From the IMG/VR virus record IMGVR_UViG_2548876936_000010: a stretch of 34,655 bases of DNA, one strand, 5' to 3'. The notes under the pieces are model-generated. The model did no database searches and was not told the origin of the DNA. It saw only the letters and a program-made list of their open reading frames with translations. Made by a program: the position numbers and the translations under genes. The first letter of the stretch is position 1. Each line of letters starts with the position of its first letter. This DNA is from a virus. Lineage: Duplodnaviria; Heunggongvirae; Uroviricota; Caudoviricetes. Positions 1,958 through 11,792 of this stretch are shown one piece after another.

Positions 1958-4405
1958 TTAACCGTCATGCATCATGCTGGCACGGGCGCGCGCACGTTTA
2001 TCCCGCTCGTATTTTTCGAGCGCATCCTGTAACTGGCGGTCAAGCTGTGTCCCCGGCGCAGTACCACCCGTCAGGCTGATGTGATATTCGTTTTTACTCT
2101 GGTCTACATAAGAGCGGCCAGCCGGTGCCGTGACCGGCTGATAAGCCTGATAGCCTGCATAAGAGCTGGTCGCCGGAATATAACCACCGCTGCCATACGT
2201 GGCGGCTTGAGTTCTGGCGGCGGTCTGGTCAAGTGTGTCTGACTCTTTGTTGATAACACCGAGTTTTTCCAGTACCCAGTCAATACCACTGCGCAGTTTG
2301 TTGAACGCATTAAGCGGCAGCATCAGCGCGTCAGCCAGTGCCTGCCCGAACATGACGCCCGTGTCACGGCAACGGTTCAGGGTGTCCTGGGTGGCTTTGA
2401 CCGGGGCAATCAGGTTTTTAAACCACTGCCACGCGGCCTGTAACTTTTCACCCAGCCAGTCAAACACCGGCTTCAGTGGCGTGAACAGTTCCCCCACCGG
2501 CGCAAATGCCGCTTTCAGCCCTTCAACCACACCGCCAAAGAATGCGCTGACAGGCTCCCAGTATTTACGGATAAGCAACGCCCCGGCGACAATGGCGGCC
2601 ACCACGGCCACAACCGGCCAGCTAATCGCCCCGATGGCCGTCATAACAGCACTGCTAACCGTCGTGAAGATTGCCCCCATTGCGCCTGCTGCCGCGATAA
2701 TGGCATTGATGCCGGTGATAACCGGCCAGGCTACAAGACCAATGGTACCGATGATGCCAATAAGCGCCAGCGCGCCACCGACAATGAGGCCGATGGTTGA
2801 CGCCAGTGATTTGTTTTTCTGGATCCAGCCGTCGAGTTTTAACACATACTTTGTGGCCGTCTGAGTGAGCTTACGCAGTGCGCCTTCCTGCTGGTCAAAC
2901 AGGTCAGTCCCCACTGCCTCATAAGCGGACTGAAACTCTTTAAAGTCACCGCCTAGGTTGTCCTGCATGATATTTACCAGCTCGGCGGTCTTCCCGTCTG
3001 AGGCTTTAAACGCAGCGGTCAGTTTGTCCAGCTTTCCGGTTGAGGCGGCAGTCATCAGCACGGCGGCGGCTGAGCTGGCCTCCTCCCCGAAAATAGTTTT
3101 CATGTATTCAGCCTGCTGGGCAGTACCGAGCCGGTTTTTCTCAAAACTGGCCTGCATTTCTTTCAGAATGGTAAATATTGGCCGGGTGTTTCCCTTGCTG
3201 TCTGAGGTTTTCACTCCAAGCTCTTTGAGTGCATCCCATGCTTTTCCCGTCGGTGCCTGCAGGCGGCTTAACACGGCACGGCTTCCCGTCCCCGCCATTG
3301 AGCCTGTGATTTTTGCATCATGCAGCGCCCCGACCATTGCGGCGGTTTCTTCAATGCTGACACCGGCATTTTTTGCCACAGGTGCGGCATAGGTCAGCGC
3401 ATCGCTCATGCCGTCAAAATCGGCGGCGGTTTTGTTCATCGTCATGGAGAGAACATCCCCGATATGAGCGACCTTATCGTTTGAAAGCTGAAAGGCGGAT
3501 TTCATCCCCATCAGCAGGGCGGCGTTTTCTTCCATCGTGCGACGGTTCGCCAGCGCCATATTCAGCGTGACCGGCGTTGCCGCCTGAATGGCATCAACAT
3601 CCCCACCGGCTTTTGCAATGATAATCTGCGCACCGGCTGCATCATCCGCCGAGGCGGCGGTGTTGTCGCCGAGCTGGCGCGCCTGTTTGCGGAGCGCGGC
3701 CATTTCGGCGGAGTCTTTTGCCACGCCGAGCACAGCCTGTAATTCTGAGTTTTTCTGCGCAAACTCATAACCGGGCATCAGCAGCTTAACTCCGGCCATC
3801 GTTCCCGCCGCCGCAATCCCCACACCGGCAGCGCCCACTGAGGCCATATTTCCGGCCAGTTCCTTTCCGGCCTGATAACGCTGTTTGACTGCGTTAAGTT
3901 TTGCCTGTTGCGCACTGACACGCGCCAGCGCGTCACGCTGCCGGTTAAGCTGCGCGGTGGTTTCACTGATACGGTTTTTCAGCCCCTGCTCATCATGTGC
4001 AAGATTGCGGGTATTAATTCCCACAGCAGCCAGTTCCCGCTGCTGGCGTTTAACGGAATCCGTCAGGCGGTTATATTTCGCCTGTAAGTCCTCCGCCGCT
4101 CGCTTTGCGGATTCCAGCACTTTCGCCTGAGCACGGGTCGGACGTTCGGTATTTTTAAACTGTGTGGCAAGGGCTTCGGCTTCCAGCCGTGCCTTCTCAA
4201 GTGCATGACCAGTCACGGCGAGCTGTGCGCTGGTCTTGCGAAATCCCTCAATATGGGATGCGTGACCGTTCAGCTCGCGCAGTGATTTTTGTGTGTCCCG
4301 GATATCCCCCGACAGCGACTTGCTCGCTGTACGGATGGATTTAAACGGGCGGGATGCCTGGTCAACAGCCCTGAGCAATACCTGTAATTTTACATTGTTA
4401 CTCAT
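1958..4405 (-). CDS. T: Tail tape measure protein gpT (815 aa)
   Basis: 815-aa ORF, Ala/Gln-rich helical N-terminal part, long hydrophobic Gly/Ala-rich central segments, between E/E' and U; ATG at 4405. Confidence 0.9.
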   Translation of the reverse strand: MSNNVKLQVLLRAVDQASRPFKSIRTASKSLSGDIRDTQKSLRELNGHASHIEGFRKTSAQLAVTGHALEKARLEAEALATQFKNTERPTRAQAKVLESAKRAAEDLQAKYNRLTDSVKRQQRELAAVGINTRNLAHDEQGLKNRISETTAQLNRQRDALARVSAQQAKLNAVKQRYQAGKELAGNMASVGAAGVGIAAAGTMAGVKLLMPGYEFAQKNSELQAVLGVAKDSAEMAALRKQARQLGDNTAASADDAAGAQIIIAKAGGDVDAIQAATPVTLNMALANRRTMEENAALLMGMKSAFQLSNDKVAHIGDVLSMTMNKTAADFDGMSDALTYAAPVAKNAGVSIEETAAMVGALHDAKITGSMAGTGSRAVLSRLQAPTGKAWDALKELGVKTSDSKGNTRPIFTILKEMQASFEKNRLGTAQQAEYMKTIFGEEASSAAAVLMTAASTGKLDKLTAAFKASDGKTAELVNIMQDNLGGDFKEFQSAYEAVGTDLFDQQEGALRKLTQTATKYVLKLDGWIQKNKSLASTIGLIVGGALALIGIIGTIGLVAWPVITGINAIIAAAGAMGAIFTTVSSAVMTAIGAISWPVVAVVAAIVAGALLIRKYWEPVSAFFGGVVEGLKAAFAPVGELFTPLKPVFDWLGEKLQAAWQWFKNLIAPVKATQDTLNRCRDTGVMFGQALADALMLPLNAFNKLRSGIDWVLEKLGVINKESDTLDQTAARTQAATYGSGGYIPATSSYAGYQAYQPVTAPAGRSYVDQSKNEYHISLTGGTAPGTQLDRQLQDALEKYERDKRARARASMMHDG

Positions 4406-5412: not shown

Positions 5413-6603
5413 TTAATTGCTGTTAACCGAAGTGACCAGATTTGCCAGGTATTTATCGGTAATACGCTGGCGCAGGGTCAGGTTTTCGAGAGGAGGCACC
5501 GGTGTATAGTCGTAGTCGATATACAGTTTTCCGGCCTTGAGGGTTTCCGCATCGTTGGATTCTTCGCTGAACCAGCAGGTCGCATCCACGATATAGCCGT
5601 TTGTTTTCAGCTCACGGAATTTGGCATTAATGCCGTCAACGATGTCGCGAATCAGCGTTGCGGTGATGGGCTTATCCACAGCCCACATGTGCGCCTCAGC
5701 CATCGTGTCGGCCAGCACCTGCGCGGTGCGGGTGTAGTTTTCAAAGAGGAACAGCGGGTCATCAGAGCAGGTACGGTTACCCCAGAAGCGGAAACCGTCA
5801 CGGCGAATCAGCGTTGTGACGCCTGACTCGTTAAGCAGGTCAGCATCGGTGCCGGACTCCTGCAAATCCCAGAATACGGACGCGCTGATGCCGGTAACAC
5901 CGTTTACCCCGACGTTGGACAGCGTTTTATGCCAGCCCTGCTCCTGGTCGATTTTAGCGCGCAGACCCAGCGCACGGGCGGTGGCATACGCGGTGGCGGT
6001 GGTACTGGTGACCGTATCCCATGCGAGGAAATCCGGCCAGATGACCATCAGCTCACGCTGGCTGAAATTCTGGCGGTAGGCTTTCACCTCGGAAATGGTC
6101 TTACAGCCCCATGCGCTGATATATCCGAAAGCGCGCAGCTTCTGACAGACGGATGCCAGTGCAACAGCCACCTCTTTGGTATCCAGTCCCGGCACACCGA
6201 GAATACGCGGTTTAACACCGGTTACCGACTCCGCCGCCAGCAGGGCTTTTAGTCCGGTGTACTGACCGTTTTCGTCGGTGGTGCCGATGATATTGGAAAC
6301 GGTCTGCGCGAGTTTCGTTTCCTCGTCATCACCGGTGCCGTCTTCCACGCGCACGACAACGGTGACCGGTTTTGACTGGTCAGCGATGGCCTGCAACGAT
6401 GCCGCCAGCGTGCCTTTTTTACCGGCCTTTGCAATTGCGCTTTGCACATTGGTAATCAGCACCGGTTTATTGAGGGGGAAGGTTTCCGCATCCGCATCGC
6501 TGGCCGTGCAGACCATGCCGACAATGGCAGTGGATACGGTGGAAATGACGCGGGTGCCGTCGTTAATCTCCAGCACCTGCACGCCATGATGATAGTCACT
6601 CAT
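5413..6603 (-). CDS. FI: Contractile tail sheath protein gpFI (396 aa)
   Basis: 396-aa ORF, ATG at 6603, first gene of the FI-FII-E-T-U-D block. Confidence 0.9.
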   Translation of the reverse strand: MSDYHHGVQVLEINDGTRVISTVSTAIVGMVCTASDADAETFPLNKPVLITNVQSAIAKAGKKGTLAASLQAIADQSKPVTVVVRVEDGTGDDEETKLAQTVSNIIGTTDENGQYTGLKALLAAESVTGVKPRILGVPGLDTKEVAVALASVCQKLRAFGYISAWGCKTISEVKAYRQNFSQRELMVIWPDFLAWDTVTSTTATAYATARALGLRAKIDQEQGWHKTLSNVGVNGVTGISASVFWDLQESGTDADLLNESGVTTLIRRDGFRFWGNRTCSDDPLFLFENYTRTAQVLADTMAEAHMWAVDKPITATLIRDIVDGINAKFRELKTNGYIVDATCWFSEESNDAETLKAGKLYIDYDYTPVPPLENLTLRQRITDKYLANLVTSVNSN

Positions 6604-6698
6604 CCGTTTAACTCCGTGGTTAATGGGTGCAACTATTTTCTGTTGTGCAGAGCATAAGACGCTATTTGACCTGGCTGGTCAGTGGATGAAACAACAGA

Positions 6699-6727
6699 TA
6701 AAGAAAAGGCGGGCAATTCGCCCGCCT
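6699..6727 (-). terminator. Candidate intrinsic terminator (8-bp GC stem aggcgggc/gcccgcct, 5-nt loop, T-rich tail on - strand)
   Basis: Inverted repeat 6707..6714 / 6720..6727; - strand continues tttctttatc; lies between the cargo island and the FI start. Confidence 0.45.
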
Positions 6728-6786
6728 GTCCTGATTTGTACTCACTCATTTTCCGCCTGACAATTTACATAGCCCAAATGCTATCA

Positions 6787-6802
6787 AATCTGACAGTCTG
6801 CT
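6787..6802. repeat. Left copy of 16-bp perfect inverted repeat aatctgacagtctgct bracketing the FI-G cargo island
   Basis: Exact reverse complement of 9220..9235; a related direct copy at 9092..9116. Confidence 0.8.
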
Positions 6803-6933
6803 TTGAGCGAAAAGTGGACATTAGAGTTACAAAAGCAAGTTTAAATCATCCAAAATATTACAATGTCCTTATCTATCTGATATCGTTATGATAAAAAGCT
6901 CCTGAATATAATCGATAGTAGGTGGTTATTTCC

Positions 6934-7311
6934 ATGAAATCAATTTTAGAGGTTTTTACTCAAGGAAATACTAAAGAAAAACTGGCTGTTATCGCCGATC
7001 TCACAACCATTGCGGGAATATCGATTGCAACTATTATTGCTGGTTTGTTAACCCTAGTTGCAAAAACAGATAAACTAGATGTTGGAAATCTGTTTGGAGT
7101 TGTCATAATATCTCTGCTCGGATTGGCTGGTGTTTGCTGTTTTGTGGCCTTATTTATTTGGGTTATAACCCAAATGTCTAAACCATGGGGAACACCTCGG
7201 GGGGTTCAGCCCTTAGTTAAGTGTGCTATTTCCCTTATCTTTATCTGTATGTTTTTGCTGGCTGTCTTTACATTTTATGAGTTTATTTCTTCGATGAGCA
7301 TACGCTATTGA
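6934..7311 (+). CDS. Small hydrophobic membrane protein (125 aa, about 3-4 predicted TM helices), function unknown
   Basis: ATG at 6934 preceded by aggtgg; long hydrophobic stretches (IAGISIATIIAGLLTLVA, VVIISLLGLAGVCCFVALFIWVI, ISLIFICMFLLAVFTF); AT-rich relative to flanking phage genes. Confidence 0.6.
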   Translation: MKSILEVFTQGNTKEKLAVIADLTTIAGISIATIIAGLLTLVAKTDKLDVGNLFGVVIISLLGLAGVCCFVALFIWVITQMSKPWGTPRGVQPLVKCAISLIFICMFLLAVFTFYEFISSMSIRY

Positions 7312-7333
7312 ATATAAAATCAGCCCCCATAAC

Positions 7334-7918
7334 TTAAAAGAGACCTTCTATATCGACTTCAATGCCCAAATAACGGACTGTGCTTTCCAGTTTCTTATGG
7401 CCCAACAGAAGTTGGATCACCCGGAGACTCTTGGTTTTCTTGTAGATTAAGTAAGGTTTTGTTCTTCTCATGGAATGTGTGCTGTACAGCGAATCTTCGA
7501 GACCAAGCTTTTCTACCCACCCATGAAAAATTCGGTTGTATTGCCGGGTTGATATATGGTGGTTAGTTCCGACCCGAGAGCGGAACAGGAAGCCTTTACT
7601 ATGCCAGTTACCGAGCTTTATCAATGCAGTAACCGCTTCCCTTGTCCCTTTGGTTATCTCAAATTGGACAGGGCTGCCGGTTTTCTGTTGCAACACCGTT
7701 GCTCTGCTTGAGACAGAACTGCCATATGCAGCATCTGATACTTTGAGTTTGACCAAATCACAGCCCCGTAGCTTAGTGTCCAAAGCCATGTTGAACAGAG
7801 CTAGATCGCGTGTTTTACCTTCCAACTCAAGTCTAATCCGGATCCCCCAGATATGAGATATCTGAAGTGGCCTTTTTTGACCGATGGTACGGTCTTTATT
7901 CCACGGTGACGTTTTCAT
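7334..7918 (-). CDS. Small stand-alone tyrosine recombinase (about 194 aa, catalytic domain only)
   Basis: ATG at 7918 preceded by AGGAGA; candidate catalytic residues present: R in KLRGCDL, K in QQKTGSPV, HSMRRT (HxxR), LLGHKKLESTVRYLG (H and Y); no N-terminal arm/core-binding domain. Confidence 0.7.
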   Translation of the reverse strand: MKTSPWNKDRTIGQKRPLQISHIWGIRIRLELEGKTRDLALFNMALDTKLRGCDLVKLKVSDAAYGSSVSSRATVLQQKTGSPVQFEITKGTREAVTALIKLGNWHSKGFLFRSRVGTNHHISTRQYNRIFHGWVEKLGLEDSLYSTHSMRRTKPYLIYKKTKSLRVIQLLLGHKKLESTVRYLGIEVDIEGLF

Positions 7919-8024
7919 ATTCAAATCTCCTGCAATGTGGGAGATTTGAGTATGGTTGTCTCTCAAGAGCGAAAATAAGTCAACTATTACTAGTTGTTGC
8001 GCATGTACGTATTCTGTCAATTAA

Positions 8025-8867
8025 TTATTGACAATCATCAATTCTGGAATGATCAAAATCATCATATCGAATTATAGTCTGGTTGACTGTATCTATTGTT
8101 GGTGTCATTTCTGTTATAATATCCTGATAACCTAAAGAGTTAAATACATTTACTAAGGCCTCACACCGAAGGGCCGTAGCAATTACAAAATTATAAATTG
8201 CCAGCCGTTTATTTTCTTGTTTAACTGCAAGAATGAATTCGATAGCAGTATTTTCATCACTTTGGATTGCATTATATAGAGATACTATATTTACCATATC
8301 ATCAGAGAATGTATGTATTGAATCACAAAGGGGAACGTAATGGGCATGATAGTGTGTTTCCCAGCCAATTAATTCAAAAAGTTTTCTGGTTCCTGGATAT
8401 TCAGGTGTATTTGGCCACAATCTATTAAATAGATCAGTTAGTTCTTTTCCCATGCGAATCCTTTCATTTGCTGCTGGATTAGTCATTCCTTTGGATTTTA
8501 AACACTCCAGCCACCGTTTTCCATTACTATGAACTAATTTCTTACTAGCCTTGAGTAATGCTTGTGCATTTTCGCCATCATCTATTGCTATATAAAATTG
8601 ATTGGCAGCCTGTTCTATTATAACCCTAGCTAATACTTCCGATGCTGAAAAGGCTCCTATATTCAAAGAAGAGATAGCCTGATTACTAAGTTCATTCAGT
8701 ACATTAAAGTACTGTAAGACCATCAATTTTTGTTCCACACCCTTTAGGTTGTCTATTTTATTTTTATGCTCCTCAAATTTTGCATGGATATATTTATTTA
8801 TCGCGGCTATTTTTTTTACATCTTCGTCAAGATCAAACGGGCAACGTCCAAACAATTCTTTTTTCAT
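8025..8867 (-). CDS. Hypothetical protein (280 aa), AT-rich cargo gene, function unknown
   Basis: ATG at 8867 preceded by AGGAGA with 6-nt spacer; ends 4 nt upstream of the recombinase gene; no motif I can recognise. Confidence 0.65.
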   Translation of the reverse strand: MKKELFGRCPFDLDEDVKKIAAINKYIHAKFEEHKNKIDNLKGVEQKLMVLQYFNVLNELSNQAISSLNIGAFSASEVLARVIIEQAANQFYIAIDDGENAQALLKASKKLVHSNGKRWLECLKSKGMTNPAANERIRMGKELTDLFNRLWPNTPEYPGTRKLFELIGWETHYHAHYVPLCDSIHTFSDDMVNIVSLYNAIQSDENTAIEFILAVKQENKRLAIYNFVIATALRCEALVNVFNSLGYQDIITEMTPTIDTVNQTIIRYDDFDHSRIDDCQ

Positions 8868-8905
8868 ATATTTCTCCTGTTGTACAAGCTTCCATAAGTT
8901 GGCAG

Positions 8906-8911
8906 ATTATA
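8906..8911 (-). promoter_or_regulatory. Candidate -10 hexamer TATAAT about 38 nt upstream of the 280-aa gene start
   Basis: - strand reads TATAAT at 8911..8906; no good -35 found, so weakly supported. Confidence 0.25.
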
Positions 8912-9091
8912 CACTGAAGATTACCTATAAATAGCTGTGCGGGATAGCAGATCAGTGCAAGAAGTACAACCAAGTGAATGTGCGTATTCAGATACCTGGC
9001 CTAACGTTCGCGATAGCCGTCCCCTGCACGAAGCCATATATTAGATGTATTAGCTCAGACCTTATCTGACAGGTTGAGTAGGTAGAATCTA

Positions 9092-9116
9092 ATCAAAGCT
9101 GACAGTCTGGTTTGGA
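9092..9116. repeat. Direct-orientation degenerate copy (atcaaaGctgacagtctgGtttgG) of the left repeat
   Basis: About 22 of 25 positions match 6783..6807; a further partial copy atctgacag at 9064..9072. Confidence 0.6.
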
Positions 9117-9211
9117 CTGTGAGTTCAACCGATGGATGCAACACACAGCGATCTACGGACATTACTAGCATAGCTGTGTATTAATCATCGGGAAGCAGGT
9201 CAGTCCGCTCC

Positions 9212-9253
9212 TAGCACAGAGCAGACTGTCAGATTAGGCTTTACTCTGTGCTA
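9212..9253. repeat. 10-bp perfect inverted repeat (tagcacagag / ctctgtgcta) enclosing the right 16-bp repeat copy (9220..9235)
   Basis: Arms at 9212..9221 and 9244..9253; 9220..9235 agcagactgtcagatt is the exact reverse complement of 6787..6802. Confidence 0.75.
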
Positions 9254-9287
9254 TAGATACGTTAGCTCACTCCAGAGATCATACAAC

Positions 9288-9815
9288 TTATTGCGGCATT
9301 TCCGGCCATTCAGGATTTGCAGGATCCACACGGCTGACCAGAACACTGTAGCGTTCCCATGCTTCCAGTCGGCTACGCTCCTCATCTGTTGCCATATTCA
9401 GTCTGACAGAGCGTTCCAGTGGCTGAATGATAGTTTCAGCTTCGGAACGCAAAGCTGACTTCTGTAATTCCGCCAGTTGCAGCTGTTCGTCTGCCGTATA
9501 AATCCGCTTAATCACGGCACCATCCTTAAACATCCATTTACCTGAGTCATCAGCACGTCGGTTGGCGGTAATATCAGGAACCTCGACAACGCTAAAACCT
9601 TCAGGGTTGAGCGTTGAAGCATCTCTGGTGATGCCGACAATTATATTATTCTCATCGTAAACAATCTTTATCGTGTCTTCCTGAAAATTACTTACTTCCT
9701 CATACCAGTTTTTTCCCTCTTCGGACCATAACCAGATAACATCAAAATTTTTTGTCAGTTGATATTGGGCAACAGTTTTTGGATTACCCGCAGTAATATT
9801 TTTTAAATGCTGCAT
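9288..9815 (-). CDS. G: Tail fibre assembly protein gpG (175 aa)
   Basis: 175-aa ORF immediately downstream of H; ATG at 9815; length as P2 G. Confidence 0.8.
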
Positions 9816-9818
9816 AAA

Positions 9819-11792
9819 TTACACCTGTGCGACGTTATACCATGTGCCATTGATGTATTTTTGTATTGGTCTGAATACTGCGGGGTCATCACCATCGACT
9901 TCACCGACAATACCAAGCCCGGTAATTACGTGCCCTGCTTTCTCATACATCACCCCTTTCTGCATGGTCTGGACAACACGTGTGCCAAGTCTGACATCTC
10001 TCACATAGCGGGAATCAAAGTTACCGTAATCCGAGGGATTAACACGCCCCGTAATATTTATGGTTTTATTACTTTGAACGCTTCCGGAGACAAAGCGCAT
10101 AACATGGACGCTATTAGCATAAACATCCAGATTACCATCACCATTTTGTTTAAAGCCCGTGTCATTATCACCCAAAACAATCGAATTACCGCCAAGAGCA
10201 CTGGATGTTCCTATACCCAGAGCACCATTCAATTGACCACCAGATAATGATAACGCCCCAACATCAGCAGCAGTCGGTTTAATGTACGAACTGTAAATTA
10301 CATATACAGTTCCATCTGTCAGGCCTGTTGGTTTATTCGCTGTATAAGTTGGTGATGTATGAATCGTTACGCTGGCGTTACTGGTATAATCCCACTGAAT
10401 ATTAACACCTGTGGCGTAATTACCTATTTCAACATAAACATCATAGGTATCACCGGATGTATTCACCCATGCAAAATTAGTAAATCCAACCGATGTCCGT
10501 CGCCATAACGCACCAGTAAGACCTTTTGGATTTCCATTTCCCGCACGAAGAACAAGTTCAGATATACCAGCCTGCATAGGGGAGTTAACATTATATCCGG
10601 CACCACCAATCAGGCTTATGTAAACCACGGAACTGGCCTGGGGCATGGTTACAGTTGCCAGCCTGAACCATCCTGTACCACCACTAAAAGACATGGTTGT
10701 TGAATTTGTTGCTCCAATATTGCGCAGGAATAATCTTTTATCAGGAATATCCGCACCGTTCTGATCTTTCTGAAGACGTTTTTCAGCATTGTCATAGGCA
10801 GACTTCACCGCTTTTGGTGTTGCGGCCAGTGTTTCAGAATCACTGTTGGTGGCGCTACTGAGCTGAACAAGCCCTTTTCGCGCTGTGGTGGCATCCTGTG
10901 CAGTGTATTTCCCGTTAGCAAGGTCATACGCGACCTTTACCGCCTTTGGCGTTGCGGCCAGCGTTTCAGAATCGCTGTTGGTGGCGCTACTGAGCTGAAC
11001 AAGACCTTTTCGCGCTGTGGTGGCGTCCTGTGCAGTGTATTTCCCGTTAGCAAGGTCATACGCGGCCTTTACCGCTTTTGGTGTTGCGGCGAGCGTTTCA
11101 GACGTGCTGTTGGTGGCACTACTGAGTTGGACAAGACCTTTTCGCGCTGTGGTGGCATCCTGCGCAGTATATTTCCCGTTAGCAAGGTCATACGCGGCCT
11201 TTACCGCTTTCGGCGTTGCAGCCAGTGTTTCAGACGCGCTGTTGGTTGCACTGCTTAACTGAGTAAAACCTTTTGCGGTCAGCGAGGCGTCCGGGTGACG
11301 TCGTGACTGTTCATGCTCTGCAATTTTGTCATCAACGTAATCCTGCGTTGCCATCACCGTTGTGGTGTCAATGGTCAGCTCCACTGAGGCCACACTGCTG
11401 ACGATGATGACCATGCGGCAGGTCTGCGAACGCCCTGAGCCTTCGGCAAGAGCGGGTTTATAACTTTCAGCCATGTTCGCCACGGCAATTAGCGTTCCCG
11501 CATCATCGTACAGGCCAAGCTCACGCATCCAGAAACCGCCCACCTCCGGCGGAATAACCAGCTCTGCGATAATATAATTACTGTTTCGTTTGTCCTGGCT
11601 GATTTTGTTCAGCGCATGTCGCCAGACTTCGCGGATAAGCCCGGTCTGTCCGGCATCCGGGACAGGCAATTTACCACCGCCATCCCCGACGGCCATCGTG
11701 GTAATGTTGACCTTCCGCCCTCCCGGTGCGGTTGCCGCTGCCAGCTTTGCTGCACCGGCAGTGGTGATAACGGTTTTGAATTTTGTGCTCAT
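9819..11792 (-). CDS. H: Tail fibre protein gpH (657 aa) with internal 44-aa tandem repeats
   Basis: 657-aa ORF; N-terminus MSTKFKTVITTAGAAKLAAATAP...; repeat KGLVQLSSATNS.SETLAATPKAVKAAYDLANGKYTAQDATTAR; Gly/Ser/Thr-rich C-terminal half. Confidence 0.9.
   Translation of the reverse strand: MSTKFKTVITTAGAAKLAAATAPGGRKVNITTMAVGDGGGKLPVPDAGQTGLIREVWRHALNKISQDKRNSNYIIAELVIPPEVGGFWMRELGLYDDAGTLIAVANMAESYKPALAEGSGRSQTCRMVIIVSSVASVELTIDTTTVMATQDYVDDKIAEHEQSRRHPDASLTAKGFTQLSSATNSASETLAATPKAVKAAYDLANGKYTAQDATTARKGLVQLSSATNSTSETLAATPKAVKAAYDLANGKYTAQDATTARKGLVQLSSATNSDSETLAATPKAVKVAYDLANGKYTAQDATTARKGLVQLSSATNSDSETLAATPKAVKSAYDNAEKRLQKDQNGADIPDKRLFLRNIGATNSTTMSFSGGTGWFRLATVTMPQASSVVYISLIGGAGYNVNSPMQAGISELVLRAGNGNPKGLTGALWRRTSVGFTNFAWVNTSGDTYDVYVEIGNYATGVNIQWDYTSNASVTIHTSPTYTANKPTGLTDGTVYVIYSSYIKPTAADVGALSLSGGQLNGALGIGTSSALGGNSIVLGDNDTGFKQNGDGNLDVYANSVHVMRFVSGSVQSNKTINITGRVNPSDYGNFDSRYVRDVRLGTRVVQTMQKGVMYEKAGHVITGLGIVGEVDGDDPAVFRPIQKYINGTWYNVAQV
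10791..11276. repeat. About 3.7 in-frame tandem copies of a 132-bp unit inside tail fibre gene H
   Basis: Unit starts ccgc(t/c)tttgg at 10807, 10939, 11071, 11203 (period 132 bp), near-identical copies. Confidence 0.85.

Follow-up and report, generated by a model that had tools for sequence, protein, structure and literature searches.

The repeats that bound the Z region of P2-like prophages are the closest described counterpart of the element considered here. GenBank entries AJ512676-AJ512685 ("P2-ECxx proviral Z-region") have labelled them left and right inverted repeat since 2003, with unrelated open reading frames (ORFs) of low GC content in between. These records are reportedly those of Nilsson, Karlsson and Haggard-Ljungquist (2004, Mol Biol Evol 21:1). 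We examined a 34,655-nt stretch of viral DNA (IMG/VR record IMGVR_UViG_2548876936_000010; the whole stretch is called the window below) in which a sequence-only reading had pointed to a perfect 16-bp inverted repeat enclosing an island of three genes, one of them a recombinase. The window is a P2-like prophage, and the repeat is the conserved pair of arms that bounds the variable cargo slot (Z/fun) between the genes G and FI. Since the arms match the annotated left and right inverted repeats in locus and sequence, the repeat itself is already known and the window is a further member of the Z-region group. Exchange at Z/fun by site-specific recombination has also been proposed before, according to the summary of Nilsson et al. 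2004 given in PMC8987985. What we propose here, from comparison with cassette arrays in other genomes, is that the arms are probably sites at which a family of tyrosine recombinases of about 200 amino acids (aa) exchanges gene cassettes.

In Acinetobacter plasmids, short palindromic sites of the tyrosine-recombinase type flank the gene modules known as pdif modules (PMC7399989, PMC11705084), as such sites flank modules here. The likeness is one of working and not of family membership: in both cases modules recur across replicons, boundaries lie at sites and the flanking sites are oppositely oriented. The present sites differ in being unlike dif (by inspection) and in having two types with different centres, and the enzyme is a dedicated recombinase of ~200 aa whose NCBIfam scores for XerC/XerD, 25-49 bits, lie far below the cut-offs of 220-335. 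Neighbouring pdif sites are said, in work of Blackwell and Hall from 2017, to alternate in orientation. Integrons are similar in that a tyrosine recombinase stands beside an array of one- or two-gene cassettes split by structured repeat sites, that orphan arrays lack the enzyme, as in clusters of attC sites lacking integron-integrases (CALINs), and that the cargo is rich in candidate defence genes. In contrast to integrons, the recombinase here is small and scores far below the integron-integrase models (NF011946, 18.3 bits with a cut-off of 435; TIGR02249, 18.2 bits with a cut-off of 265), the junctions are double 24-nt palindromes whose consensus appears to differ from that of attC (Rfam gave no match in 6500-9400 of the window), the cassettes lie between inverted rather than direct sites, and sites occur on both sides of the recombinase gene. 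FimB/FimE with fimS and Rci with the shufflons also combine a ~200-aa recombinase that has no large N-terminal domain with inverted repeats nearby, but here no inversion was seen, the repeat centres differ and the segment is cargo rather than a promoter or alternative gene ends. Where heterospecific lox or FRT sites are used in engineered cassette exchange, one enzyme acts on two sites that differ in their spacers, and cassettes are exchanged without excision or inversion. That is a laboratory design, whereas the arrangement here would be natural and the incompatibility of its two site types would follow from their sequence differences. A literature search in a library that was itself incomplete found no description of such site arrays, and the proposed exchange mechanism appears not to have been described previously.

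The repeats, arms and sites of the window are as follows, with the strand given where one applies.

6787..6802, + strand: left copy of the 16-mer, from sequence search.
9220..9235, - strand: right copy of the 16-mer, from sequence search.
6730..6825: FI-side arm, the 'right inverted repeat' of the P2 Z region, from genome and GenBank matches.
9203..9287: G-side arm, the 'left inverted repeat' of the P2 Z region, from genome and GenBank matches.
6730..9287: whole insertion, made up of FI-side arm, cargo and G-side arm, from five empty-site loci.
6796..6819, - strand: FI-type 24-nt site, GTCTGCT-TTGAGCGAAA-AGTGGAC, the best matrix match in the window (38.3 bits over 6790-6825).
9203..9226, + strand: G-type 24-nt site, GTCCGCT-CCTAGCACAG-AGCAGAC on +, the second-best matrix match (19.7 bits over 9197-9232).
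9212..9253: hairpin with a 10-bp stem and a 22-nt loop, not unusually stable.

The cargo side of each arm ends in a 24-nt site made of 7-nt inverted half-sites, GTCYGCT and AGCGGAC, around about 10 central bases. The centre reads TTGAGCGArr on the FI side and, inverted, CTGTGCCArr on the G side; on the other strand, from the G side toward the cargo, the G-type site of the window is GTCTGCT-CTGTGCTAGG-AGCGGAC. The overlap of the 24-nt site with the 16-mer is limited to the last 7 nt. The same two site types surround the recombinase gene in many genera. The variable DNA upstream of 64 recombinase copies stops at AAYGTCCGC-TNN-TCGCTCA, ~60 nt before the ATG, which is the reverse complement of the inner FI-side arm. 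At 50 of 80 recombinase loci the inner part of the G-side arm, ..CTGTGCCArrAGCGGACrTT, stands straight after the stop codon of the standard gene and variable DNA follows. Across these 80 loci (1.13 Mb) the FI-type motif was found 149 times in the orientation of the recombinase and 9 times in the opposite one (0.14 per kb, against 0.015 per kb in shuffled sequence). The G-type motif runs against the recombinase and was counted ~150 times, where shuffled sequence had 4 per 600 kb, or ~8 for 1.13 Mb. Frequent pairs ~50 nt apart consist of a complete FI-type site, a linker of ~19 nt and a complete G-type site, with differing cassettes outside. The arrays thus run from an FI-type site through a linker or the recombinase gene to a G-type site and a cassette, and then repeat. 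Every array cassette lies between an inverted pair of unlike sites, and at Z/fun the P2 backbone takes the position of the linker or recombinase gene. The suggestion of the sequence-only reading that the repeats are recombination sites for the adjacent recombinase is supported in a modified form, for the 24-nt sites, which flank the family elsewhere, but not for the 16-mer. We had considered the 16-mer as a regular companion of the recombinase and rejected it, as it is absent from ~75 of the 80 loci and occurs at 0.014 per kb against ~0.007 per kb by chance.

To score the arms we used a matrix of 105 distal array sites (consensus GTCCGCTccTCGCTCAnAGCGGAC), built without the P2 arms and without recombinase-proximal sites. 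Its two best hits in the window were the two arms, on opposite strands, and both scores exceed the shuffle maximum of 13.9 bits for the 34.6-kb window. The matrix also recovered both arms in nearly all arm-bearing loci as well as internal sites in several longer cargos; those of P2-EC48 divide its three annotated ORFs. Homology breakpoints in the arrays fall at the sites, with 34 of 124 within 25 nt of one against 1.0 expected. A 457-bp part of one P2 cargo (L071) is 94% identical to a cassette of a Trabulsiella array (L095); the shared block ends 4 and 8 nt from sites, and one end breaks inside the site, between GAGC and GA. Distant homologues of the recombinase from marine and beta-proteobacterial sources, at 58-74% identity, have sites at the same two positions, diverged in sequence. 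Seven loci (L093, L119, L139, L116, L121, L149 and L150) carry two recombinase copies or a full copy and site-preceded 5' fragments, as expected if the recombinase gene itself acted as an array unit.

The arms belong to the phage backbone. Arm queries were covered over 87-97% of their length by the P2-ECxx records at 89-95% identity, which alignment confirmed, and in P2-EC31 the G-side 16-mer is identical and the FI-side copy has one mismatch. Pfam matches of the flanking genes and synteny with P2-like phages place the arms between G and FI, and a search of a phage collection matched them to many P2-like phages. Complete E. coli genomes that contain the entire island number 36, S88, ATCC 11775 and PCN033 among them, against 960 with the FI-side arm and ~1,300 with the G-side arm (9203-9290), and 29 unrelated cargos lie between such arms; the arms are therefore a shared platform and not the island's own. 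No recombinase was seen among the ORFs of the P2-ECxx records examined. The sequence-only reading had suggested looking for the repeat at island edges in other genomes, and the arms are indeed widespread: both flank the G/FI hot spot in ~1,000 E. coli genomes, nearly all P2 hot spots have them and no recombinase, and they are not specific to this island. In AJ512681 (P2-EC48, our locus L004) the 'right inverted repeat' feature is placed at 3166-3256, inside ORF3, and the FI-side-arm match lies at ~3771-3806; the annotated coordinates seem misplaced.

We compared the arms across 80 IMG/VR loci with a close FI homologue. Both cores were present in 42 of them, inverted every time, with the FI-side core at a fixed place ~199 bp upstream of the FI start and 29 unrelated cargo clusters of 0.9-4.1 kb between the arms. 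With one representative per cargo, the arms are conserved until exactly 20 nt inside the core and unrelated after that: averaged over alignment columns, the most frequent base accounts for 0.95-0.98 of the sequences in the core, 0.81-0.88 over the next 17 nt, which form the site, and ~0.40 beyond. The cargo consequently starts at one fixed base in both arms among at least 29 unrelated cargos. The two arms differ consistently: the FI side reads TTGAGCGArr-AGCGGAC and the G side CTGTGCCArr-AGCGGAC. The perfect 16/16 match of the window is a minor variant; most related phages have the G-side core AATCTGACAGTCCGCT, with one mismatch to the FI-side core. The inner ends of the two arms do not co-vary significantly within a locus (7.97 against 7.80 of 12, p = 0.24), and cassette-specific terminal repeats, a possibility we had entertained, thus found no support.

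Five close relatives (L014, L037, L056, L074 and L084) have neither arms nor cargo. Their empty sites read ..CAATAA, 2 nt and ACAGGCGGGC.., so that the G stop codon is almost directly joined to the GC-rich terminator and the DNA that precedes FI. Because these relatives lack arms and cargo together, 6730-9287 has been inserted between the stop codon of G and the terminator (6707-6727). The sequence-only reading had also considered terminal repeats of an inserted element. An insertion is what we found, but arms common to at least 29 cargos are not the terminal repeats of this island.

Several variants of the hot spot deserve mention in their own right. Record NZ_CM132924.1 (L005) has, at 6005-6766, an exact 16-mer and an inverted copy with 2 mismatches, both site types and two small ORFs between them. 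This arm pair sits downstream of a different myovirus tail module, and the platform therefore extends beyond the classical P2 relatives. In E. coli IHE3034 (L002) the segment corresponding to 6768-7813 is deleted, with loss of the FI-side core and most of the recombinase; neither end of the deletion is at a site. Hot-spot variants H14, H36 and H231 have IS3, IS21 or IS1 insertions within the cargo, and the break of H36 at ~9060, which we had taken as a candidate site-specific event, is such an IS21 insertion and was rejected. A further P2-type group (L009, L021, L023 and L078; E. coli H67-H78 and H250-H257) has no arms at this place. It carries an ORF of 197-199 aa annotated 'recombinase family protein' directly upstream of FI and opposed tail-fibre-assembly-like ORFs beyond, and its locus is probably a serine-invertase tail-fibre switch.

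Within the window, a search of all 34.6 kb returned AATCTGACAGTCTGCT exactly at 6787-6802 and 9220-9235, as the sequence-only reading had stated, and a third copy, AAGCTGACAGTCTGGT, with 2 mismatches at 9096-9111 (+). At three or fewer mismatches there are 3 copies against 0.24 expected, a number reached in 0 of 100 shuffles. The inverted repeat grows to 33 nt at 82% identity (6787-6819 / 9203-9235). The third copy lies within a 49-nt direct repeat of 71% identity (6757-6805 and 9066-9114), which also includes the partial copy CTGACAG, located by the same reading at 9064..9072 and found at 9066-9072. That reading had taken 9092..9116 as a degenerate direct copy; the 2-mismatch copy is there, but it is a cassette end rather than a degenerate arm copy, because it lies inside the arm-like 'B' end of the DUF5677 cassette described below. 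The perfect 10-bp stem around the right copy (9212-9221 / 9244-9253) was confirmed and the hairpin is present in most G-side arms, across which no compensatory changes in the stem were seen. Arm folding showed no gain in stability over shuffled sequence (z -0.6 to -1.2).

We propose the following mechanism. The family of the island recombinase would act on the 24-nt sites. Cassettes would always lie between two inverted sites, one of the G type and one of the FI type, and between the FI-type and the G-type site would stand the recombinase gene, a linker of ~19 nt or, in P2, the whole phage genome. With their unlike centres, the two site types would be mutually incompatible. As the central bases differ, the two should not recombine with each other, so that cargo would be swapped but never flipped: exchange of FI-type with FI-type and of G-type with G-type sites between two replicons would swap the cassette and leave its orientation unchanged. 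Since most P2 hot spots hold sites without a recombinase, the enzyme would act in trans at most of them.

Several points weigh against this mechanism. Its support is comparative throughout. The incompatibility of the site types is argued from the behaviour of other tyrosine recombinases, whose centres usually measure 6-8 nt and not 10 as here. The 24-nt site leaves unexplained the equal conservation of 60-70 nt of each arm outside it, including AATCTGACA of the 16-mer. With 19.7 bits, the G-side arm of the window is only moderately above the null (13.9). The recombinase served to select the array loci, so the array counts apply to recombinase-bearing loci, and among the loci sampled just two cargos were common to P2 hot spots and arrays, namely the L071 cassette and the DUF5677 module. 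The recombinase of the window may itself be inactive, because its conserved tail and 3' site are lost. Finally, P2 cargo could be swapped by ordinary homologous recombination in G and FI.

That an inverted repeat brackets a tyrosine recombinase had led the sequence-only reading to consider an invertible segment, in which the island recombinase would flip the 2.4 kb between the 16-mers in the manner of the fim switch or the shufflons, and the recombinase does give a weak match to the NCBIfam model for tyrosine-type DNA invertases (22.9 bits, cut-off 222). The genomes do not support this. The island is colinear in all 36 complete E. coli genomes that carry it, and so is the commonest other cargo between the same arms in 201 genomes (from a sampled ranking, in which a class of fewer than ~50 records could escape); the cargos of the 42 phage loci gave no opposite-strand matches to one another; and ~1,000 genomes have the arms without any recombinase. 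The arm centres also differ: in every one of 29 loci compared, 2-5 of the 6 central positions are unlike. In the window the 16-mer is identical in both arms, yet the adjacent centres are TTGAGCGAAA and CTGTGCTAGG. We regard inversion as highly improbable. Hardly more probable is a transposon-like origin, in which arms and cargo would be a mobile insertion cassette or a unit like a miniature inverted-repeat transposable element, with terminal inverted repeats of ~90 nt and a transposase acting in trans. Arms and cargo do form a discrete insertion relative to the empty sites, and the similar arm pair beside a different phage tail module (L005) would agree with movement of this kind. However, arm similarity peaks at the inner, cargo end and is weak at the outer termini, the reverse of transposon ends, and the variable part is inside the repeats and not outside. 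Moreover, no target-site duplication is visible at the junctions of empty and occupied loci, and no associated transposase was found, with none in the cargo by Pfam and NCBIfam.

Each site is also a small palindrome, the G-side arm stands at the 3' end of the late operon that ends in G, and the FI-side arm is upstream of a terminator and the FI promoter region. The sites could on these grounds be operators, which the sequence-only reading had also considered, terminators or insulators, or elements resembling repetitive extragenic palindromes (REP-like), and would keep transcription of the cargo separate from that of the late tail operons. The arms, however, lack a T-run, are no more stable than shuffled sequence and match no Rfam family, and a structural role alone would predict neither the 149:9 orientation bias nor breakpoints inside a site; such a role is improbable as the explanation. 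A larger but still small probability attaches to the view that the arms are inherited, passive homology anchors, that homologous recombination in the arms and in G and FI is the sole route of cargo exchange, and that the likeness to the arrays reflects common descent of a segment inserted once rather than site-specific activity today. Arms about as conserved as the neighbouring backbone, the lack of co-variation of the inner arm ends within a locus, and a difference between occupied and empty loci that is one clean block, transferable by flanking homology, are all as this view has it, and a 2026 preprint on P2/P4 hot spots stresses intense local recombination. It leaves unexplained the identical start base of at least 29 unrelated cargos in both arms, the internal sites that divide ORFs within cargos, the breakpoints at sites in arrays of unrelated genera, and the constant positions that the two site types hold on either side of the recombinase gene. 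Recombination at the 24-nt sites by the ~200-aa tyrosine recombinase family is the explanation we prefer, and we read the island of the window in its light.

The genes and remaining features of the island and its flanks are as follows.

5413..6603, - strand: FI, tail sheath gene of the P2-type backbone (Pfam Phage_sheath_1 / 1C / Gp18).
6707..6727, - strand: intrinsic terminator hairpin GGCGGGC..GCCCGCC with T-run (terminator scan; fold z = -4.3).
6934..7311, + strand: ORF of 125 aa, hydrophobic and membrane-like (ORF list).
7334..7918, - strand: tyrosine recombinase of 194 aa, catalytic domain only (Pfam PF00589, 9.3e-18).
7916..7954: 15-9-15 palindrome over the recombinase start codon, CATATTCAAATCTCC tgcaatgtg GGAGATTTGAGTATG, conserved in the family.
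7961..7984, - strand: remnant of the recombinase-proximal FI-type site, GTTGACTTA-TTTTCG-CTCTTGAGA, from comparison with other recombinase copies.
8025..8867, - strand: DUF5677 protein (Pfam).
9040..9125, + strand: 'B' unit, the arm-like end of the DUF5677 cassette, which holds the 2-mismatch 16-mer copy (repeats and comparison).
9147..9163, - strand: split FI-type site, cargo-side half, AATGTCCGT-AGA-TCGCT (site comparison and matrix).
9288..9815, - strand: G, tail fibre assembly gene of the backbone (Pfam Caudo_TAP).

The three ORFs that the sequence-only reading had placed inside the repeat, the recombinase among them, were confirmed there. GC content is 0.32-0.40 within the repeat and 0.54-0.60 in the flanks. 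Terminator scanning and folding gave the GC hairpin at 6707-6727 as the only convincing terminator near the arms, and no Rfam family matched in 6500-9400. The 125-aa ORF was without a family match in Pfam, NCBIfam and PADLOC; for the cargo proteins as a whole, PADLOC gave no match and NCBIfam nothing specific. Read from G to FI, the island begins with the G-side arm and its site (9226-9203), a 56-nt remnant and the split FI-type site (9163-9147). It continues with the DUF5677 cassette and its 'B' end (~9146-7973), the other half of the site (7984-7961) and the start-codon palindrome, and it ends with the recombinase, the membrane ORF that converges on it, and the FI-side arm, whose site (6819-6796) comes first. 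The 56-nt remnant beside the G-side arm lies directly 5' of the recombinase in other genomes. The DUF5677 gene, picked as a defence candidate in bioRxiv 10.1101/2025.10.07.681051, is the cargo of a cassette of ~1.17 kb (~7973-9146) with the direct repeat AGCGA on either side (7968-7972 and 9147-9151), and this cassette has replaced the cargo-side half of the site at 7961-7984. The 'B' unit accompanies the DUF5677 gene into a prophage of the lambdoid type (L001) and into Buttiauxella (L088), where the pair of recombinase and DUF5677 genes is also found. The island would thus be a rearranged example of its kind, with a tail-replaced recombinase, a DUF5677 cassette that interrupts the site 5' of the recombinase gene, and the ORF for a membrane-like protein. 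The palindrome at 7916-7954 could be an autoregulatory operator or a further recombinase-binding site.

The recombinase of the window contains R51, H148, R151, H174 and Y183, invariant in the family alignment, which we take to be the catalytic residues of tyrosine recombinases. Members of the family are ~200 aa long with little beyond the catalytic domain and form at least 7,974 clusters at 90% identity, under generic names only. The protein is >90% identical across many Enterobacterales genera. Of 5,426 complete E. coli genomes, 942 (~1 in 6) carry the gene, which counts in favour of a supply of the enzyme in trans. No sequence relative of it was found in PDB at E < 1e-3. The 3' end of the window copy is altered: the family tail DALEISESIEV is replaced after codon 189, so that the window copy (7334-7351) ends in ..GIEVD-IEGLF and the family in ..GIEVDDALEISESIEV, each followed by the stop codon. 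The hairpin and G-type site that normally lie 3' of the gene are absent, which suggests a deletion or a fusion with the adjoining segment of the membrane ORF. A "622-bp mobile recombinase unit" was dropped as a candidate, since its sharp edge at 7352 arose only because the window had served as the query; copies elsewhere run on past this edge, with a protein of 200 aa and a conserved 3' flank. Two recombinase loci, L001 (NZ_CP148282.1, 5965-7750) and L168 (NZ_AP023237.1), are inside lambdoid Rac/Qin-like cryptic E. coli prophages, beside hok/rem/dicB genes, and in L001 the recombinase is a pseudogene and DUF5677 is intact.

Two further observations concern elements outside the arms. A partly palindromic element of ~25 nt, GTTGCATCCATCGGTTGAACTCAC, is fused to site halves in either orientation (L107, 9642-9679 and 10851-10888; window, 9112-9146) and may be a third kind of partner site. 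In the backbone, the tail fibre protein H (9819-11792, - strand) has four tandem repeats of ~44 aa at ~10800-11330 (..DATTARKGLVQLSSATNS.SETLAATPKAVK.AYDLANGKYTAQ..).

The route by which defence genes are gained and lost at the fixed hot spots of P2-like phages is an acknowledged open question. The 2026 preprint on P2/P4 hot spots leaves the mechanism of cargo swapping open and describes ~80% of the chromosomal regions that share P2 defence genes as cryptic islands "of unknown mobility". Our results offer a candidate, with a 24-nt site in each arm and an enzyme family present in about one-sixth of complete E. coli genomes, and its layout would explain why cargo is swapped but never flipped. 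More tentatively, and with somewhat less than even confidence, we suggest that a cassette system, widespread in Gammaproteobacteria and apparently undescribed, has its orphan docking sites in the Z/fun arms. Its two incompatible, alternating site types would provide a natural form of heterospecific cassette exchange, shuttling defence-type genes among cryptic islands, plasmids and phage hot spots. If this is true, the system would be a third natural cassette platform beside integrons and pdif modules, and its junction sites would be a means to find defence cassettes and the islands that hold them.

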